Of a stretch of DNA of 29,281 nt, positions 2,466-28,886 are shown one piece after another. Source of the DNA: a virus (lineage: Duplodnaviria > Heunggongvirae > Uroviricota > Caudoviricetes); IMG/VR virus record IMGVR_UViG_2923302340_000002, positions 1 to 29,281 of that record. One strand, given 5' to 3'. Position 1 is the stretch's first letter. Every line of letters begins with the position of its first letter. The notes beneath the pieces are model-generated. The model saw nothing but the letters and a program-made list of their open reading frames with translations, did not search any database and was not told the DNA's origin. The translations under genes were made by a program, and so were the position numbers.

Positions 2466-2491
<26 letters not shown>

Positions 2492-2562
2492 TCAGCAACC
2501 CCGGTATCAGTTCATCCAGCGCGGCTGCTTTGTTCATGGCTTTGATGATATCCCGTTTCAGG
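2466..2562 (-). pseudogene. nu1: nu1 3' fragment (C-terminal ~31 codons of terminase small subunit), separated from the rest of the gene by the IS insertion
   Basis: Minus-strand reading gives LKRDIIKAMNKAAALDELIPGLLSEYIEQSD-stop, overlapping the A start as in lambda. The fragment abuts the left IS end at 2562/2563. Confidence 0.75.
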
Positions 2563-2592
2563 GTAAGCGGCTCGTCAGAACCGTATTGATAT

Positions 2593-4164
2593 TTACTGAG
2601 AGCTCAGATCAACTTTCCAGGGCAACAGATCGCGTACCCGGTTTGCCGGCCAGTCCTGGATATGTTCAATGACGTAGCGCAGCCACTTTTCTGGCTCCAC
2701 ATTGTTCAGACGGCATGTGCCGATCAGCGAGTACAACACCGCCGCATGTTCACCACCGCTGTCGGAACCCGCGAACATCCAGTTTTTCCGGCCTACGGCC
2801 ACTCCCCGTAAGGCGTTCTCTGCGATGTTGTTGTCGATTTCCACCCAGCCATTACTGCAGTACACGTTCAGTGCATCCCACTGTTTCAGCAGGTATGCGA
2901 ACGCTTTTGCCGTATCTGAGTGACGCGACAGTGTTTTCATCTGTTGCTGTATCCAGTCATACAGTGACTGCATCAGTGGCGCGGCTCTGGTTTTTCTTGC
3001 CGCCAGACGCTGTTCTGCTGAACAGCCCCGGACCTCTGCCTCGATGGCATACAGTTCACCGATACGCTGCAGGGCTTCCGTGGTGATGTCGGTGGGCGCT
3101 CTTGCATGCACATCGTGGATTTTTCTCCGGGCATGAGCCATACACGCGGCTTCCGTTATTCTGCCGGATTCGTATAACGCCCGGTAACCACCGTAAGCAT
3201 CGGCCTGAAGCACACCGCTGTAACCGGCCAGGTGATTTTGTGGATGGATACCTTTCCGGTCCGGACTGTACGCGAACCAGACCGCCGGGGGCATCTGTGA
3301 ACCGGCGTTACGGTCATCACGGACGTAGACCCACAGCCGGGCTGTCCGGGGTTTACCGCTGCCCGGCTCCTGGACCGGGACGGGGATATCATCAGCATGG
3401 ACTTTACCGGGCATCAGCACATACTGGCGCAGGACGTCATACAGCGGCTCCAGTAGTTCAGCAACGGCACCTGTCCAGCGCCCCAGCGTGGCGCGGCTCA
3501 GCTCCACACCCTGACGGCGGTATATCTCTGACTGGCGGTATAACGGCAGATGGTCTGCATATTTTCCGGTGACGACATGGGCCAGGAGCCCCGCTCCGGC
3601 ATAACTGCGTGCAATGGGTTTTGAAGGTACTGGTGCCTGCACGATATGGTCGCACCGGCAACAGGCCAGTTTCGGACGTTGTGTTTCGATAACCTTAAAG
3701 GCGCTGCTGATAAGCTCCAGTTGCTCTGACACATCACATCCCAGAGAACTGAGTTCACCACCACAGGCCGGACAGCATTCCTCTTCCGGCCGGATAACCC
3801 GGGTTTCACGGGGAAGTGAGGCCGGTAACGGTTTACGGGCTGAAGACTGGCGCAGGGCGGATGGCAGTACCGGGTCATATTGCTCACCCAGCGTTTCCGC
3901 CATTTCTTCCTGAAGTGCGCTGATTCGCTCCTGTGCTTCCTGTATCTGCCGTTCGGTTTTTGCGCGAAGTTTTTCTGAGCTTTTACCGAACTGCATACGC
4001 TGCAGTTTCGCAACCAGCGCCTTCAGCCGGTTGATTTCGGAAGCATAAGCCGCCACCCGCTGTGAGAGCAGGCGGTTGTATTCAGCCATCTGGCGTATGG
4101 TGTCCTGTTGCGTCTGCAACAGTGCCCGCAGGCGGGCGTTCTCATGAGCAAGTGAGGTGTCCAT
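2593..4164 (-). CDS. tnpC: IS66-family transposase (TnpC / orf3)
   Basis: 523-aa ORF with an N-terminal coiled-coil region ([33 protein letters not shown]), a Cys-rich zinc-binding segment (CPACGG...CCRCDH) and a C-terminal catalytic region, as typical of IS66 TnpC. Confidence 0.9.
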
Positions 4165-4183
4165 ATCCTCACTTTACAACGGG

Positions 4184-4531
4184 TTATATACGGATTCCAG
4201 CGCGTTCCGTTCGTTTCGGGTGCTTCCAGTTGATACCTTCAAGAAGCATGGATAACTGAGCCGGAGTAAGGTGCACCTTGCCGTCACGGGTGACTGGCCA
4301 GACGAAGCGGCCCCGCTCCAGGCGTTTGGTGAAGAGGCACAGTCCGTCACTGTCAGCCCACAACACTTTTATCTGGTCACCCCGGCGTCCGCGGAAGATG
4401 AACAGGTGTCCGGAGAACGGGTCATCCTTCAGGACGTTCTGAACTTTTGATGCCAGGCCGTTAAAACCATTTCGCATGTCGGTGATACCGGCAACCAGCC
4501 AGATACGCGAACCGGCAGGGAGAGATATCAT
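4184..4531 (-). CDS. tnpB: IS66-family accessory protein (TnpB / orf2)
   Basis: 115-aa ORF MISLPAGSRIWLVAGITDMRNGFNGLASKVQNVLKDDPFSGHLFIFRGRRGDQIKVLWADSDGLCLF, typical IS66 Orf2. Its start overlaps the upstream ORF stop. Confidence 0.9.
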   Translation of the reverse strand: MISLPAGSRIWLVAGITDMRNGFNGLASKVQNVLKDDPFSGHLFIFRGRRGDQIKVLWADSDGLCLFTKRLERGRFVWPVTRDGKVHLTPAQLSMLLEGINWKHPKRTERAGIRI

Positions 4532-5208
4532 CAGTGGCTGCTCCCTTTCATTTCGCGGATAAGTGTCTGTAATAACGCCGGCGTCAGTTTACCTTTAAGC
4601 CTGAGAGTTCCGGCCGGCAGAACCAGCTCGCAGCACAGACTGTCTGGCAGTGTATTTATCTGTTCAGGTATCTGCACTGGTGCCGGGATTTTATTATCCG
4701 GCTCCGGCGTTAACGTCACGGGAAGTAGCGATGTTTCATGTTCGCCGGGCGGCTGCAGGCCGCCGTTACGCCAGAGATGCCGCCAGTTAAAGAGCAGGTT
4801 ATCGTTGATTCCGTTTTCCCGGGCGATCTGCGCCACACAGGCTCCGGGCTGCAGTGACTGCTCCACTAAGGCGATTTTAAACTCATAAGGGAAGTTGGGC
4901 CGCCGGGGACGTTTTTTTACCACGGGGGCTTCGGATATAACGGTGCTTTCAGGACGTACGACTGGTACCGTGGAAAATTGTCCGTAAAGGCAGGCATCAA
5001 GTTCCTGCTCCGACATGCCTGCGGGCAAAGGCCACGAAAGGCCAGCTCTCCGAAAGCGCACGAACATACTACAAACTGTTGATTTTGGTACACCCAGGCG
5101 ACGCCCGGCCACAACCCGGGGTAAATGTTCTTCAAAGTGAAGACGTAAAGCTTCAGTGATCCAGGTCCGGTGTTTCATACGATAGTGTCCATTAAAAATG
5201 ATGGACAT
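4531..5208 (-). CDS. tnpA: IS66-family helix-turn-helix protein (TnpA / orf1); the true start may be internal to the 225-aa ORF
   Basis: The ORF contains the segment RPNFPYEFKIALVEQSLQPGACVAQIARENGINDNLLFNWR typical of IS66 Orf1. It is longer than usual for this protein, so the start codon is uncertain. Confidence 0.7.
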   Translation of the reverse strand: MSIIFNGHYRMKHRTWITEALRLHFEEHLPRVVAGRRLGVPKSTVCSMFVRFRRAGLSWPLPAGMSEQELDACLYGQFSTVPVVRPESTVISEAPVVKKRPRRPNFPYEFKIALVEQSLQPGACVAQIARENGINDNLLFNWRHLWRNGGLQPPGEHETSLLPVTLTPEPDNKIPAPVQIPEQINTLPDSLCCELVLPAGTLRLKGKLTPALLQTLIREMKGSSH

Positions 5209-5244
5209 TATTTTTGTAGAGCCGGAGGAAACAGACCAGACGGT

Positions 5245-5718
5245 TTAAATGAGCCGGTTACGTTTCAGGAAATCAACATGTCGGTTTTCCAGTTCCGGAA
5301 AACGCCGCTGTACCGAGAGAGGGATCCCGTCAAGAATACTGGCAATTTCACCTGCGATCCGTGACAGCACGAAAGTACAGAATGCGGTTTCCACCACCTC
5401 TGCGGAGTCTCTGGCATTCTTCAGCTCCTGTGCGTCGGCCTGCGCACGCGTAAGTCGATGGCGTTCGTACTCAATAGTCCCAGGCTGGAGATCTGCCTCA
5501 CTGGCAGCCCTGTAACCCTCAACCTCTTTACGGAGTTTTTCATTTTCGATATCAGCTTCCCTCTGCGCATACCACTGAATTGCCATGGCGGTATCAAATA
5601 CAGATTCAACGCCCTTACCACCTCCGGAGACACAAGGGAGTCCCTGAGATTGCCAGCGTTCAATCGTTCGCGGATCCACGTTGAAAATTTCGGCAAGTTT
5701 CTTTTTATTAACCTTCAT
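5245..5718 (-). pseudogene. nu1: Terminase small subunit nu1, truncated by the IS66 insertion after about codon 153, with the last four codons and the stop supplied by IS sequence
   Basis: [39 protein letters not shown]...[15 protein letters not shown] follows lambda Nu1 and then diverges into NRLI-stop exactly at the IS junction (5261/5262). Confidence 0.85.
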
Positions 5719-18793: not shown

Positions 18794-19531
18794 TTGCAAA
18801 ATAACTATCTACAGGTTATAGCCTATACTAGGCGCATGAATGATGGTATGACCAAGCCATTCCTTTGTACTTGCCAAGATGGGCTGGCTTACATAGTTAA
18901 AGGAAGGCCAAAACTTCGCCAAAAAGAGCTTGTAGCAGAATTTATTGCCGCCCATCTAGCAAAACAGATAGGTCTGCCATGTCCTGATTTTTGCATTGTT
19001 GATGTTGATTGTGGGTTAATCGAGTTCATGCCTGACTTGCGTGGTGAGCTTTTGCCTGGACCTGCATTTGCTACCCGCTTTATTGAAAATGCATCAATCA
19101 TAAATATTCAACAAGCAAGGAGTGCTGTAACCATTCAGGAACAAAAGAAAATATTCTTCTTTGACCGCTGGATAAACAACGCAGACAGATCATTGACTGA
19201 CATTGGTGGTAATGTAAACATAATTTACGATGCATTTAACAATAGGTATTACCTGATTGACCATAATCTGGCGTTCGCGCAGGATACAAGATCTCATGAG
19301 TATGATGTCCATGTGTATTCGCCGAATGGAAGACCGTGGGTTTTCGACATGCTCGACGAACCCGAACTGATGGATCTTGCAAATGATGCTATTAGTTCAG
19401 TAGAGGAGAAATTTAATCAGCTTCCGGATGAGTGGTTTTCAACCGATGAAGAACGAAGGCTAATGCTGAATGAGATAATGAACTGCCTGAACAGAGTGCA
19501 CGACAGAGAGTTTTGGAGTAACATCAAATGA
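18794..19531 (+). CDS. Kinase-like protein (tentative HipA-like / atypical kinase fold) at the rexA-equivalent position; the true start may be the internal ATG at 18836
   Basis: Same strand as cI and 105 bp downstream of it. Contains WINNADRSLTDIGGNVNIIYD ... YYLIDHNLAF, resembling a kinase catalytic loop (D...N) followed about 20 residues later by a DFG-like IDHN. Motif-level resemblance only. Confidence 0.4.
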   Translation: MQNNYLQVIAYTRRMNDGMTKPFLCTCQDGLAYIVKGRPKLRQKELVAEFIAAHLAKQIGLPCPDFCIVDVDCGLIEFMPDLRGELLPGPAFATRFIENASIINIQQARSAVTIQEQKKIFFFDRWINNADRSLTDIGGNVNIIYDAFNNRYYLIDHNLAFAQDTRSHEYDVHVYSPNGRPWVFDMLDEPELMDLANDAISSVEEKFNQLPDEWFSTDEERRLMLNEIMNCLNRVHDREFWSNIK

Positions 19532-20346
19532 CCACACCATGCCTGTATAGCATTATTAGATATGCTCCATATGCAGAAACCGAAGAGTTTGCTAATGTCG
19601 GTGTGGTTCTTTGTGCCCCGAAATTAGGTCAGTTTTGCTTTAAACTGACCCAAAGCAACAATGCCAGAGTAAAAAACTTTTTTCAGGATGAAATCATTTT
19701 CCCTCACGCGAGGGATGCAATTGCAAGAGAGCTAAAATTTGCTCAAGAGCAAAGTTATAAATTCAATTCTCCTGAAAAATTAGCAAATTTTTTCAACTAC
19801 TTAATTGGCAGGAAAGAGTCAATCATTCATTTTAGCTCTGCAAGAGTTGCAATGTCTGCTTGTCCACAAGACATGATGCACATACTTTTTAATAAGTTTG
19901 TACATCATTCAGAAATAACAAAAGAATCTCGTGAGACCATCCTGACGAGAGAGCTTAAGCATCGTTTCTCTCATTATAACGAACTCAGGAACGCCTTTAA
20001 AAAGGAAATGCTTGGTGGTGAACTAACGCGGTTTTCTGTACCATTTGTTGCCCGTCACGATGGAGAGATTTTATGTGCTATCAAACCCCTAACATTCACT
20101 CAGGACAAGCCTGAGAAAATGTTGGAGCACTGCGACTCTTGGACGGCCAAAATTCTGCGCGCCGCCAGTGAAAAAATTTTATCTGTCTCAAATGTGTTAT
20201 TTACGATAGATGCACCTCGCCAGCCAAGTGAGCTTGAGGTAAAAGCGATGAGTGAGATTCGTAAGACATTCGATGAGAAAGGTATAAATCACGTAGAGCA
20301 TCAGGATGAAGCATCAATAGTAAAGTTTGCTAAGCAAGCAATTTAA
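19528..20346 (+). CDS. Hypothetical 272-aa protein, translationally coupled partner of the kinase-like gene (rexB-equivalent position)
   Basis: Its start overlaps the upstream stop (ATGA at 19528-19531). It is followed directly by a strong intrinsic terminator. No recognised motif. Confidence 0.4.
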   Translation: MTTPCLYSIIRYAPYAETEEFANVGVVLCAPKLGQFCFKLTQSNNARVKNFFQDEIIFPHARDAIARELKFAQEQSYKFNSPEKLANFFNYLIGRKESIIHFSSARVAMSACPQDMMHILFNKFVHHSEITKESRETILTRELKHRFSHYNELRNAFKKEMLGGELTRFSVPFVARHDGEILCAIKPLTFTQDKPEKMLEHCDSWTAKILRAASEKILSVSNVLFTIDAPRQPSELEVKAMSEIRKTFDEKGINHVEHQDEASIVKFAKQAI

Positions 20347-26808: not shown

Positions 26809-27108
26809 GTGCAGTCGGTTTTGATGGAGAAAATTATGAACACCTTGTTTTTACTGATGGCTGAATTCAATACCCCTAACATTGAACTCTCAGCAGTTAG
26901 CCAAAAGTACTTTGGCATGAGTCCAGCCACGGCAGAAGCAAAAGCAAACGCTTGTAAGTTGCCCGTTCCAACATATCGCATCGGCACATCACAAAAAGCA
27001 AAACGTTGCATCAATATTCAGGATCTTGCGGAATATATTGACAAAAGACGGGAAGAAGGGCGAGCTGAGTGGGAAAAAGTCAGAACGGAAAAACAAAAAT
27101 ATAACTAA
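26809..27108 (+). CDS. xis: Excisionase-like / PrtN-family DNA-binding protein
   Basis: Small basic protein with an N-terminal HTH-like segment (LSAVSQKYFGMSPATAEAKANACKLPVPTYRIG), the last gene of the leftward operon before a terminator. Confidence 0.5.
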   Translation: MQSVLMEKIMNTLFLLMAEFNTPNIELSAVSQKYFGMSPATAEAKANACKLPVPTYRIGTSQKAKRCINIQDLAEYIDKRREEGRAEWEKVRTEKQKYN

Positions 27109-27123
27109 ACTAAAACTATGGAT

Positions 27124-27153
27124 AACCCGTATATGTACGGGTTATTTTTCTTT
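27124..27153 (+). terminator. Intrinsic terminator at the end of the early-left operon
   Basis: AACCCGTA-TATG-TACGGGTT hairpin followed by ATTTTTCTTT. Confidence 0.65.
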
Positions 27154-27690
27154 ATCACTATCTTTTCTTGATTTGAACAATCCACTAACAACGAAACCAA
27201 CCAAACCAACAATACTAATTGTACTTGTACCTAGTAATGCAACGATCGCTTCAACTGGAGGCTTTCCTTCATGTGCAATAAGAAACGATGTAAACATTGC
27301 GACAACGAATAAGCACCAACACGACATAAACCAAACCGTGAATGAGGCCATTTTTGTCCGAAGCTCATTGTCTATTTCTTTACCAGTTGCGTCAGCTATC
27401 TTATCCCGTACTTGTGATTTGAGCATATCAAGCTGAGCTTGAAGACTGTCCATTCTGTTCTGCTGCATAAACTCATGCAATGCACCAGTATTAGAACCAA
27501 ACTCTTCTGCCTCCAGAATAGCTTTATTTTCTGAAGAAGAATCATCGTCGCTCTCATGATTAGACGGCTCAAATGCAGATTTAAAAATCTGTTCTTGACT
27601 GTCAGTAGAGTTTAAGGATGCTTCAGAGCGACCATTTTCAACACCTGCGGCCGCTCCGATAAGTTTATAGATATCTGAATTGTGAGACAT
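27142..27690 (-). CDS. Membrane protein with an acidic N-terminal domain and two C-terminal transmembrane helices (candidate toxin partner of the Panacea-domain protein)
   Basis: 182 aa with C-terminal hydrophobic helices (FTVWFMSCWCLFVVAMFTSFLIA and AIVALLGTSTISIVGLVGFVVSGLF). Lies 22 bp downstream of the Panacea-domain gene on the same strand. Confidence 0.45.
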   Translation of the reverse strand: MSHNSDIYKLIGAAAGVENGRSEASLNSTDSQEQIFKSAFEPSNHESDDDSSSENKAILEAEEFGSNTGALHEFMQQNRMDSLQAQLDMLKSQVRDKIADATGKEIDNELRTKMASFTVWFMSCWCLFVVAMFTSFLIAHEGKPPVEAIVALLGTSTISIVGLVGFVVSGLFKSRKDSDKEK

Positions 27691-27712
27691 GTCATCCCTG
27701 AATATTACTTTT

Positions 27713-28201
27713 TCAGAGGCCCTGACATTGCTGTCGGTTATTCAATAAATCATGATAATAAGCCTTGATCGCATCATTTGAGATGATTGACGAGCCAATA
27801 CCATTATAAGCTTGTGACCAAGGCGTACCAGGCATATGAGTTAGAGTTGATAACTCAATTCCATTTTTCGAGCCGTAAAATTTATAAACAGCCCCTATAA
27901 TGCTCTCTGCTTGTGGATCCATAGTAACAATGCCACCAAAAGGAGCTACTGCTACATTCGTAACAGGTTTATTCCCATAATCTTTGAAAGCATCGTACAT
28001 TCCAGGAATAACTGGACCGTACTTCCACGCGGAGACACATTCATTGAGCAAAGGCTTACCTGTTAATGCTAAATAGTAACCATGTGCAATATAAGTAAGC
28101 TTCTGCAGTTGCATGTGGGTCAGAGGATTATGATGTTGGTTTCCCAACGTTATGAATTTATTGGCTATTTGTACCGGGCTGTACATAACCACCCTCCTCA
28201 T
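27713..28201 (-). CDS. Panacea (DUF4065) domain protein, antitoxin-type
   Basis: 162 aa with YSPVQIANKFI ... THMQLQKLTYIAHGYYLALTGKPLLNECVSAWKYGPVIPGMYDAFKDYG, the pattern I associate with the Panacea domain. Confidence 0.6.
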   Translation of the reverse strand: MRRVVMYSPVQIANKFITLGNQHHNPLTHMQLQKLTYIAHGYYLALTGKPLLNECVSAWKYGPVIPGMYDAFKDYGNKPVTNVAVAPFGGIVTMDPQAESIIGAVYKFYGSKNGIELSTLTHMPGTPWSQAYNGIGSSIISNDAIKAYYHDLLNNRQQCQGL

Positions 28202-28886
28202 TACACTGAATGTGCAAACAGTATCATCACTGTTATCTCAACCTAGCACGAACAAAAAAATTTTGGAAGATTGCAAGAGCAATTCACTGTGTTTATAACC
28301 AGCAAAGAACTGTACATATACACAGGTTACAAATTGGTGGCGAATTATACCTGCAGAAGTTGCGATGTCAACAAAGCGACCATCACAGTGTTTTGCATCT
28401 CACACTGCTATGACAAAAAATCTTTTGATAGGTTCCCAATAGGCTCCCACAAAACACATAACCAATTGTTTTTCAAAAACGATACATCCTATCGAGCATT
28501 GGTGCAACGCTAAACCGACCACTCCAGTGAACGTCAGTTTTTTCAGGCATTGCGCTGGTTTGGTTGATTTTTTGCATTTCAGAATTACCGTGCATTTTCA
28601 AATGTAGAGATTATTTTATCGATATATCATGGGGTTATGTTATTCAGCATCACTGTTCAGGAGGCTCAATAGCGGGGTACTATACCATAACAACAGGAAG
28701 CGCCTGTCTCATTGCAAAAGAAAATTGAGATCCTCTCAAGGCATGAAGCTCTCACGAAGTGATGGAAATAATCTTATTAGCCGTTAGCTTTGTTAAGGCC
28801 AATGATAAACAATCCAGGTTCGACGATAAATAAAAATCACACATTAAACTCCGGTGATATCTCTCCCTGCTAATAGCACTGATAGA

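Follow-up and report, generated by a model that had tools for sequence, protein, structure and literature searches.

Toxin–antitoxin (TA) systems in which a Panacea-domain antitoxin, PanA, is paired with a toxin, PanT, were described by Kurata et al. (2022; PNAS 119:e2102212119; PMC8832971), and these include PanAT(Esc. col.) of Escherichia coli STEC O31, which appears in Table 1 of that work under 'Membrane' with toxin WP_000019185.1 and antitoxin WP_000287252.1. The respective row of Dataset S1 (PMC8832971) records no N-terminal domain, toxin cluster T3, gene order A|T, a distance of 22, and the labels 'TA' and 'NotPhage'. The gene pair considered here lies close to the end of a 29,281-nt stretch of DNA from a virus of the class Caudoviricetes (IMG/VR record IMGVR_UViG_2923302340_000002, positions 1 to 29,281), which is referred to below, at its full length, as the window. 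The pair is the already published PanAT(Esc. col.) system, and the TA call itself is not new; what is added is a corrected start for panA, the phage and attachment-site context, including that of a Stx2k-converting phage, and the architecture of its candidate LexA operators. The explanation favored overall, which we regard as very probable, is that the panA–panT operon is PanAT(Esc. col.), carried as cargo at the attP-proximal end of a lambdoid prophage that integrates at dusA, and probably regulated by LexA.

PanT(Esc. col.) inhibits transcription, translation, and replication indiscriminately, in the manner of HokB and CCCP; it depolarizes the inner membrane, as followed with DiSC3(5), and admits SYTOX Green, which its authors read as the formation of large pores (PMC8832971). 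The checks that had been proposed in a preliminary description of the window, made from the sequence alone, namely the toxicity of the membrane protein alone versus together with PanA and its effect on membrane potential, are already published (PMC8832971). In a 10 x 10 matrix, PanT(Esc. col.) was neutralized by its cognate PanA only, while an evolved Vibrio PanA carrying T36M and Q131L gave partial rescue; in a general test by the same authors, neutralization by PanA was independent of ClpXP and Lon (PMC8832971). For the Bartonella pair, Ernits et al. (2023; PMC10440598) predicted that the stand-alone Panacea domain binds the unstructured N-terminus and the helix preceding the transmembrane (TM) region of PanT, which is supported by mutagenesis, and they proposed that Panacea is a sensor of unknown cues and unlikely to be a transcriptional autoregulator (PMC10440598).

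The corresponding elements of the window, including the Shine–Dalgarno (SD) sequences and the open reading frame (ORF) extension discussed below, are arranged as follows:

27713..28186, minus strand: panA (start most likely at 28186), encoding a 157-aa stand-alone Panacea-domain antitoxin, RefSeq WP_000287252.1.
27142..27690, minus strand: panT, encoding a 182-aa membrane toxin of the Kurata T3 cluster, RefSeq WP_000019187.1.
27691..27712, minus strand: spacer of 22 nt between panA and panT, with a weak SD (GGGA) 6 nt ahead of the panT ATG.
28187..28201, minus strand: 5-codon extension of the panA ORF as first drawn, holding the panA SD AGGAGG and probably untranslated.
27120..27147, both strands: bidirectional intrinsic terminator, common to panT (minus strand) and the xis-like gene (plus strand).

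The window matches the chromosome of E. coli CFSAN018748 (NZ_CP028192.1; a window coordinate equals the NZ_CP028192.1 coordinate minus 1) with 100% identity, and RefSeq gives the antitoxin there as WP_000287252.1 and its partner as WP_000019187.1. Since both the accession WP_000287252.1 and the 22-nt spacing are the same, the antitoxin is the very protein that was validated by Kurata et al. On the toxin side, eight alleles of the 182-aa PanT, including WP_000019186.1 and WP_000019187.1, stand beside this same PanA accession and are 92.9–100% identical to the window PanT; the alleles were drawn from 15 annotated genome or phage records, and the sequence of WP_000019185.1 is found neither among them nor in the supplements of Kurata et al. 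Additionally, the proteins of phage PhiR47_1 are identical to the window pair and have been deposited as 'PanT toxin' and 'PanA antitoxin'. The preliminary description had taken the locus for a PanA/PanT-like TA pair with a membrane toxin, which is correct, the PanA accession being that of the experimentally validated PanA(Esc. col.); the membrane partner, which it could assign to no toxin family, is PanT(Esc. col.) of Kurata toxin cluster T3. The layout that it gave is borne out by the ORF list, in which the frames at 27713–28201 (minus strand, 162 aa) and 27142–27690 (minus strand, 182 aa) are separated by the 22-bp gap 27691–27712. The terminator said to bound the pair is likewise real and is bidirectional; a terminator scan of both strands places its stem at 27120–27147 on the plus strand and at 27145–27122 on the minus strand, where it overlaps the panT stop codon.

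The upstream protein had been assigned to the Panacea domain by its motif pattern, and profile comparison agrees. PanA matches Pfam SocA_Panacea (PF13274) over profile positions 1–112 of 113, with E=6.2e-18 and 66.2 bits, well above the gathering cut-off of 25.7 bits, and it matches PHROG 1281 with E=2.4e-49. The GPV motif, the functional importance of which in Panacea was reported by Kurata et al. (2022; PMC8832971), is located at residues 57–59 of the 157-aa protein, within KYGPVIPG, and is also present in all eight relatives examined. The match of PanA to the NCBIfam model SocA_antitoxin (NF047745) is partial (E=1.1e-27) and, at 96.8 bits, stays far short of the 190 set as equivalog cut-off. 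Comparison of the PanA and PanT sequences with the PDB gave nothing meaningful. The domain stands, but the start codon at 28201, which would give 162 aa, most likely does not: its ATG belongs to ATGAGGAGG, the AGGAGG of which (28198–28193) forms an SD 6 nt before the ATG at 28186. Both RefSeq and the PhiR47_1 record start panA at 28186 (157 aa). This second start is also that of the relatives of PanA (153–157 aa), and two of the three related leaders that were aligned have the upstream ATG in another frame. The gene most likely begins at 28186 rather than at 28201.

PanT has a full-length match to phrog_13343, a family of unknown function (E=1.8e-113), and matches none of the curated Pfam families. 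The 549-nt panT gene occurs as a single copy, always chromosomal, in 79 of 5,426 complete E. coli genomes; this conservation, together with PHROG matches to E=1.8e-113 for PanT and 2.4e-49 for PanA, places the gene pair far beyond chance. An acidic N-terminus and two C-terminal TM helices had been described for the 182-aa protein, and net charge, hydropathy, and AlphaFold2 secondary structure agree on them. Residues 1–75 carry a net charge of -11, and hydropathy reveals hydrophobic segments at residues ~116–139 and ~148–172, with an 8-residue loop between them and Lys/Arg-rich flanks on both cytoplasmic sides. The two helices map to the window as follows, with the AlphaFold2 confidence given as the predicted local distance difference test (pLDDT):

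27274..27345, minus strand: predicted PanT TM helix 1, residues ~116–139, from hydropathy, a 28-sequence alignment, and an AlphaFold2 helix of pLDDT 76–84.
27175..27249, minus strand: predicted PanT TM helix 2, residues ~148–172, ALLGTSTISIVGLVGFVVSGLFK, from hydropathy, the alignment, and AlphaFold2.

In the 28-sequence alignment, the N-terminal half of PanT is hypervariable and acidic. The nearly invariant core comprises G103-x2-IDN-x-LR-x2-MA, FM-x2-WC-x-FV of TM1, and ALLGTSTISIVGLVGFVVSGLFK of TM2, in which G103-x2-IDN-x-LR forms an invariant juxtamembrane motif ahead of TM helix 1 and the TM2 segment is almost unchanged in homologues down to 33% identity. The AlphaFold2 model built on this alignment has a mean pLDDT of 58.5 and is usable for secondary structure only. 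Its layout consists of a short N-terminal helix, a disordered acidic region at residues 19–56 (pLDDT <50), a long helix that continues into TM1, a turn, and TM2; the helices span 68–139 and 146–178, and the pLDDT is 74–84 in the TM hairpin. The alignment fits an arrangement in which a conserved membrane-active module is joined to a variable part that may carry the specificity for the antitoxin.

Allelic variation in E. coli is asymmetric, with one PanA accession paired with at least eight PanT alleles. The substitutions among PanT alleles form two clusters, at positions 3, 28, 35, 37, 42, 47, 50, and 61 of the acidic N-terminal region and at positions 120, 124, 130, 131, and 134 of TM1. No variation is seen in TM2. 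The single PanA variant observed, in strain STEC309, has four substitutions near the C-terminus.

According to the RefSeq annotation, the window is a lambdoid prophage. Its gene order begins with portal, terminase, lysis cassette, Q, replication genes, cII, a cro-like gene, and a LexA-family (CI-type) repressor, and continues with N, cIII, kil, anti-RecBCD, an Ea22-like gene, a 3'-5' exonuclease, and a PrtN-family/excisionase-like gene. The features that flank the pair are these:

26836..27108, plus strand: PrtN-family (excisionase-like) gene from RefSeq, with a match to the mEp460 'excisionase'; the last gene of the convergent early-left operon.
28491..28595, minus strand: displaced 5' fragment of dusA from RefSeq, marking the prophage end (attachment site).

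No further cargo separates the panAT operon from the dusA attachment site of the prophage, and the host genes zur, dinF, and lexA follow beyond the dusA fragment. Two further points of the preliminary description are confirmed by this context, as the 3'-5' exonuclease and the PrtN-family/xis-like genes of the adjoining phage operon run on the plus strand, opposite to the pair, and the dusA fragment places the pair at the prophage edge. The same panAT–dusA arrangement is found in strains STEC309 and FWSEC0008. The record of PhiR47_1 is linearized exactly at attP, with int and then a dinI-like gene lying across attP from panA. The panT gene is also carried by three sequenced phages, namely PhiR47_1 (from ECOR13), 1720a-02, and the Stx2k-converting phiSTEC1575. 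Contrary to the 'NotPhage' label in Dataset S1 of Kurata et al., PanAT of E. coli is phage-borne, beside attP at dusA.

An IS66-family element (ISCro1 transposase, tnpB, and tnpA), at ~2466–5718 of the window on the minus strand, sits inside the terminase small-subunit gene and splits it into a partial and a remaining copy; therefore, the prophage in the window is probably defective for packaging, with panAT intact. The same prophage bears a HipA-family kinase (227 aa) and a DUF3037 protein (272 aa) at 18848–20346 on the plus strand, with a 4-nt overlap, directly downstream of the CI-type repressor, which is the position of rexAB in lambda. These two proteins match A and B of the PADLOC candidate system PDC-M66 (E=2.9e-16 and 8.9e-15) and represent a second candidate defence or TA pair in the prophage.

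The leader of panA contains a candidate promoter followed by three putative LexA operators, scored below with a position-specific scoring matrix (PSSM):

28344..28371, minus strand: candidate panAT promoter, TTGACA, 16 nt, TATAAT, matching 12/12 consensus positions and facing panA.
28308..28327: putative LexA box 1, ACCTGTGTATATGTACAGTT on the minus strand, 17 nt past the -10, with the highest PSSM score of the window (20.2).
28285..28304: putative LexA box 2, TGCTGGTTATAAACACAGTG on the minus strand, PSSM 19.5, the second best in the window, in tandem with box 1.
28204..28223: weaker putative LexA box 3, TACTGTTTGCACATTCAGTG on the minus strand, PSSM 16.8, the third best, abutting the panA SD upstream.

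A promoter scan found the panAT promoter to be the only perfect sigma-70 consensus of the region, and the three top LexA scores of the 29-kb window all fall between this promoter and the panA start. The matrix is symmetrized and derives from 26 E. coli LexA operators known from the literature, not from a database, with the operators of lexA itself held out; for these held-out operators, which lie in the flanking chromosome, the scores are 19.1 and 19.2. A score of 20.2 is reached in none of 300 shuffled windows, and the chance expectation of sites of at least 19 is 0.012 per 29 kb. The element CTGTGTATATGTACAG, 17 nt downstream of the promoter, is one of two matches to CTGT-N8-ACAG in the window, the other lying inside the IS66-family transposase gene. 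Boxes that precede dinI-like genes score 19.8–26.4, and over the 101 kb of real sequence that was fetched, sites of 16.8 or above occur exclusively ahead of lexA, a dinI-like gene (with a tum-like ORF in P2-like prophages), or panA. The promoter and boxes are identical across all fetched E. coli alleles. The boxes are assigned to panA because only panA lies downstream of them in the integrated state. Their interpretation as int operators acting across attP, or as chance palindromes, was rejected in view of the score statistics and of their location directly downstream of a consensus promoter that faces panA. A scan of 26900–28700 with Rfam found no known RNA family, and the ~150-nt leader has no sign of a type I/III RNA antitoxin or a riboswitch. 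A repeat resembling a LexA half-site, CTGTACATAACCAC, is also present at 28179–28192; it is 86% identical to the core of box 1 and overlaps the panA start codon, and no full box is formed.

A database search with PanT retrieved 67 homologues, all from Enterobacterales. Each of the eight distinct relatives examined has a Panacea gene on the same strand as its PanT homologue and 21–45 nt upstream of it. The two proteins diverge in parallel, the PanA/PanT identities being 75/66% for Enterobacter, 73/64% for Klebsiella and Salmonella, 61/38% for Providencia, and 42–50/34–41% for P2-like prophages. Candidate LexA boxes recur in most of these lineages. The Enterobacter leader can be aligned with that of the window and retains the -35 (TTGACT), the -10 (TATAAT), and box 1 (score 21.8); in the Salmonella relative, a box of 19.2 adjoins the SD, just where box 3 lies in the window; and the Serratia relative has a box of 23.5 located 304 nt upstream with no intervening gene. 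In Klebsiella and in P2-like prophages, one or two boxes (up to 26.4) stand before (tum-like)–dinI genes, which are themselves located ahead of panAT in the same orientation. We consider it likely, judging from the sequence, that host LexA keeps panAT of the window prophage repressed and that the operon is induced in the SOS response. With somewhat less assurance, we propose that DNA damage is the activating cue of the enterobacterial T3-type PanAT lineage, in which LexA repression would be a conserved trait and LexA would replace autoregulation by the antitoxin; these modules recurrently accompany dinI and LexA boxes in lambdoid and P2/186-like prophages. LexA, SOS, and the native promoter go unmentioned in Kurata et al. 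(2022; PMC8832971), and nothing relevant came from a literature search that combined DUF4065 with LexA.

In the PhiR47_1 record, the dinI-like gene at 41380–41689 (L027:1881-2190 in our locus numbering) lies just downstream of int and has two strong LexA boxes ahead of it, which score 20.8 and 21.6. In its circular form, this related, inducible phage would have a putative SOS unit on either side of attP, namely dinI and panAT.

Several points weigh against the explanation favored here. The LexA boxes are predicted sites, and the matrix that scores them rests on operators from the literature rather than from a database. Boxes 1 and 2 are located at about +11 to +52 of the predicted start and not over the -10/-35, and their conservation carries little weight, as the E. 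coli alleles are 95–100% similar. The Providencia relative, the only one of this kind among the relatives scanned, has no LexA box, while the boxes of the P2-like prophages may serve tum/dinI first of all, and maybe these only, read-through into panAT being presumed. With regard to identity, that of the window PanT to WP_000019185.1 is an estimate bounded by the alleles at 92.9–100%, and the pull-downs that proved PanA:PanT complexes were obtained for five other pairs and not for PanAT(Esc. col.) (PMC8832971). Moreover, the PADLOC v2 defence-system models gave no meaningful match for PanA or PanT.

In P2/186-like prophages, the distant relatives of PanAT are found at the variable hotspot that separates gpA–(62-aa ORF)–dinI from the portal gene. 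This P2-like hotspot is described by Rousset et al. (2022) as an antiviral reservoir, and 'DUF4065 + hypothetical' arrangements are among those listed for it in their supplement. The neighborhood gives circumstantial support for a defence role of PanAT, and no more. The surroundings of the distant relatives resemble defence islands, with a reverse transcriptase (RVT_1; L021:3964-5724) and a DUF4145 protein (L024:3853-4551) as neighbors, and the Providencia pair adjoins the methylase and specificity subunits of a type I restriction–modification (R-M) system (L020:3866-6495). The panAT relatives of Klebsiella, Salmonella, Enterobacter, and E. coli P2-like prophages are directly preceded by a co-directional dinI homologue, a recurrent linkage of which we found no earlier description:

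L016:1764-2072: dinI homologue next to a panAT relative.
L018:2043-2279: dinI homologue next to a panAT relative.
L021/L022/L024/L025, ~1550-2300: dinI homologues next to panAT relatives.

In the mechanism that we propose, PanT would insert into the membrane through its C-terminal helical hairpin with both ends cytoplasmic, the juxtamembrane helix and the two TM helices constituting the conserved core, while the variable acidic N-terminal region would be the regulatory part that faces PanA. The stand-alone Panacea protein PanA would neutralize PanT by direct binding to its cytoplasmic N-terminal and juxtamembrane part, as inferred from the Bartonella pair. Two tandem LexA operators just past the consensus sigma-70 promoter, together with a third one located at the ribosome-binding site, would block this promoter. 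Expression of panAT would be low in the unstressed lysogen, and its SOS derepression would coincide with prophage induction, host LexA supplying the transcriptional control that a DNA-binding antitoxin gives in classical type II systems. The strong SD of panA and the weak SD of panT may favor an excess of antitoxin, and the toxin would be set free upon the loss or occupation of PanA.

The readings that compete over the role of this pair differ in how well they suit the locus. A role in abortive infection, or exclusion, is compatible with the molecular identity as PanAT and heads the ranking, although we hold it only tentatively: PanA would sense phage or be titrated by it, freed PanT would collapse the membrane, and the lysogen would die before the invader replicates. 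The company kept by the relatives points in this direction, as distant ones in the P2-like hotspot lie beside a reverse transcriptase or a DUF4145 protein and one lies beside a type I R-M system, and so does the hotspot of Rousset et al. (2022) itself, an antiviral reservoir with 'DUF4065 + hypothetical' arrangements. Furthermore, Ernits et al. (2023; PMC10440598) both propose that Panacea is a sensor and showed defence by the depolarizing TA system RmrTA, and the window prophage bears its second candidate defence pair. However, neither protein matches any PADLOC model, and a literature search found no phage-challenge result for panAT, nor any paper on phage defence or prophage stabilization by PanAT(Esc. 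col.). Under LexA repression the level would also be low in uninfected, unstressed cells; this would be unusual in a sentinel, but basal expression may be enough. Next in rank, and rather doubtful, is a device for prophage addiction or an induction fail-safe, in which the SOS burst would load PanA and PanT at excision, and cells that lose the genome or abort induction would lose the labile antitoxin and be killed or arrested; alternatively, the pair could induce a TisB-like dormancy that tolerates DNA-damaging stress. The pair is situated right at attP, beside the excision and integration functions, and its probable LexA control suits such a device, for which E. coli offers an established precedent in the SOS-induced membrane-depolarizing toxins TisB and DinQ. 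The labile PanA that is presumed here sits uneasily with a neutralization that is independent of Lon and ClpXP, and the retention of the intact pair by a probably defective prophage fits addiction but equally any role that benefits the host.

Two further readings carry much less weight. PanT could be envisaged as a holin-like lysis accessory, with PanA as the antiholin that tunes the timing of lysis on induction, and the two-TM hairpin with both ends cytoplasmic, the large pores, and the predicted expression on induction would all accord with this. It is nevertheless improbable and stands third among the roles, since the prophage owns a lambda-family holin and an endolysin (at ~8.1–9.3 kb) and a lysis protein in its late operon, about 18 kb off, and the ~115-residue cytoplasmic region of PanT is foreign to holins. 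No holin or lysis family is matched in Pfam or PHROG, the PHROG families of PanT all being of 'unknown function', and lysis cassettes are distant from the P2 hotspots and chromosomal islands where relatives reside. Disfavored, and the least probable of all, is a type VI system like SocAB, with PanA as a proteolytic adaptor that hands the toxin to ClpXP. It draws on the shared Panacea domain and on the partial SocA_antitoxin match (E=1.1e-27), yet this match reaches 96.8 bits against an equivalog cut-off of 190, PanA neutralizes without the need for ClpXP or Lon (PMC8832971), and PanT, as a membrane protein, bears no relationship to SocB.

The favored explanation, a LexA-regulated PanAT(Esc. 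col.) operon carried as prophage cargo, bears on a question that the field itself has stated as open, i.e., what activates Panacea systems, and a LexA-gated promoter gives a directly testable hypothesis on when PanAT is switched on. If it is true, SOS control would couple a pore-forming toxin to the point at which the prophage is induced, where it could serve in exclusion, in addiction, or as a fail-safe, and LexA gating would link PanT to SOS-induced membrane toxins such as TisB.

Compared with other systems, the likeness of panAT to TisB/IstR-1 and DinQ/AgrB of E. coli is one of regulation and effect, as panAT too, if the LexA inference holds, would express a depolarizing inner-membrane toxin under LexA control. 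In contrast, TisB/IstR-1 and DinQ/AgrB are type I systems with an RNA antitoxin and peptides of 27–29 aa, which have no sequence relationship to PanAT and are not members of the family. RmrTA of the Gordonia phage Kita (Ernits et al., 2023; PMC10440598) is, like PanAT, phage-borne, and its toxin has a C-terminal membrane region and both depolarizes and permeabilizes; its antitoxin is of another class than Panacea, and anti-phage activity has been demonstrated for it (PMC10440598). SocAB of Caulobacter crescentus, a type VI TA system, shares the Panacea domain of its antitoxin with PanA, whereas SocA is a ClpXP adaptor and SocB hits the replication clamp; the window PanA falls below the SocA equivalog cut-off and its toxin is a membrane protein. 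The PanT(D11/T12):PanA pair of Bartonella choladocola (apis), which combines a stand-alone Panacea protein with a pore-forming toxin of charged N-terminus and C-terminal TM region, serves as the working model for the window pair. Its toxin belongs to a separate cluster, the homology of which to T3 was suspected by Kurata et al. (PMC8832971), and this system is not known to be linked to a prophage or to LexA. Closest of all is PanAT(Esc. col.) of STEC O31, which agrees with the window pair in antitoxin accession, gene order, the 22-nt gap, and the 182-aa T3 toxin series with its charged N-terminus and C-terminal TM region. It differs in the toxin allele, WP_000019185.1 there versus WP_000019187.1 in the window, and in being labeled 'NotPhage' in the dataset of Kurata et al., whereas the pair is prophage cargo in the window and is carried by three sequenced phages.

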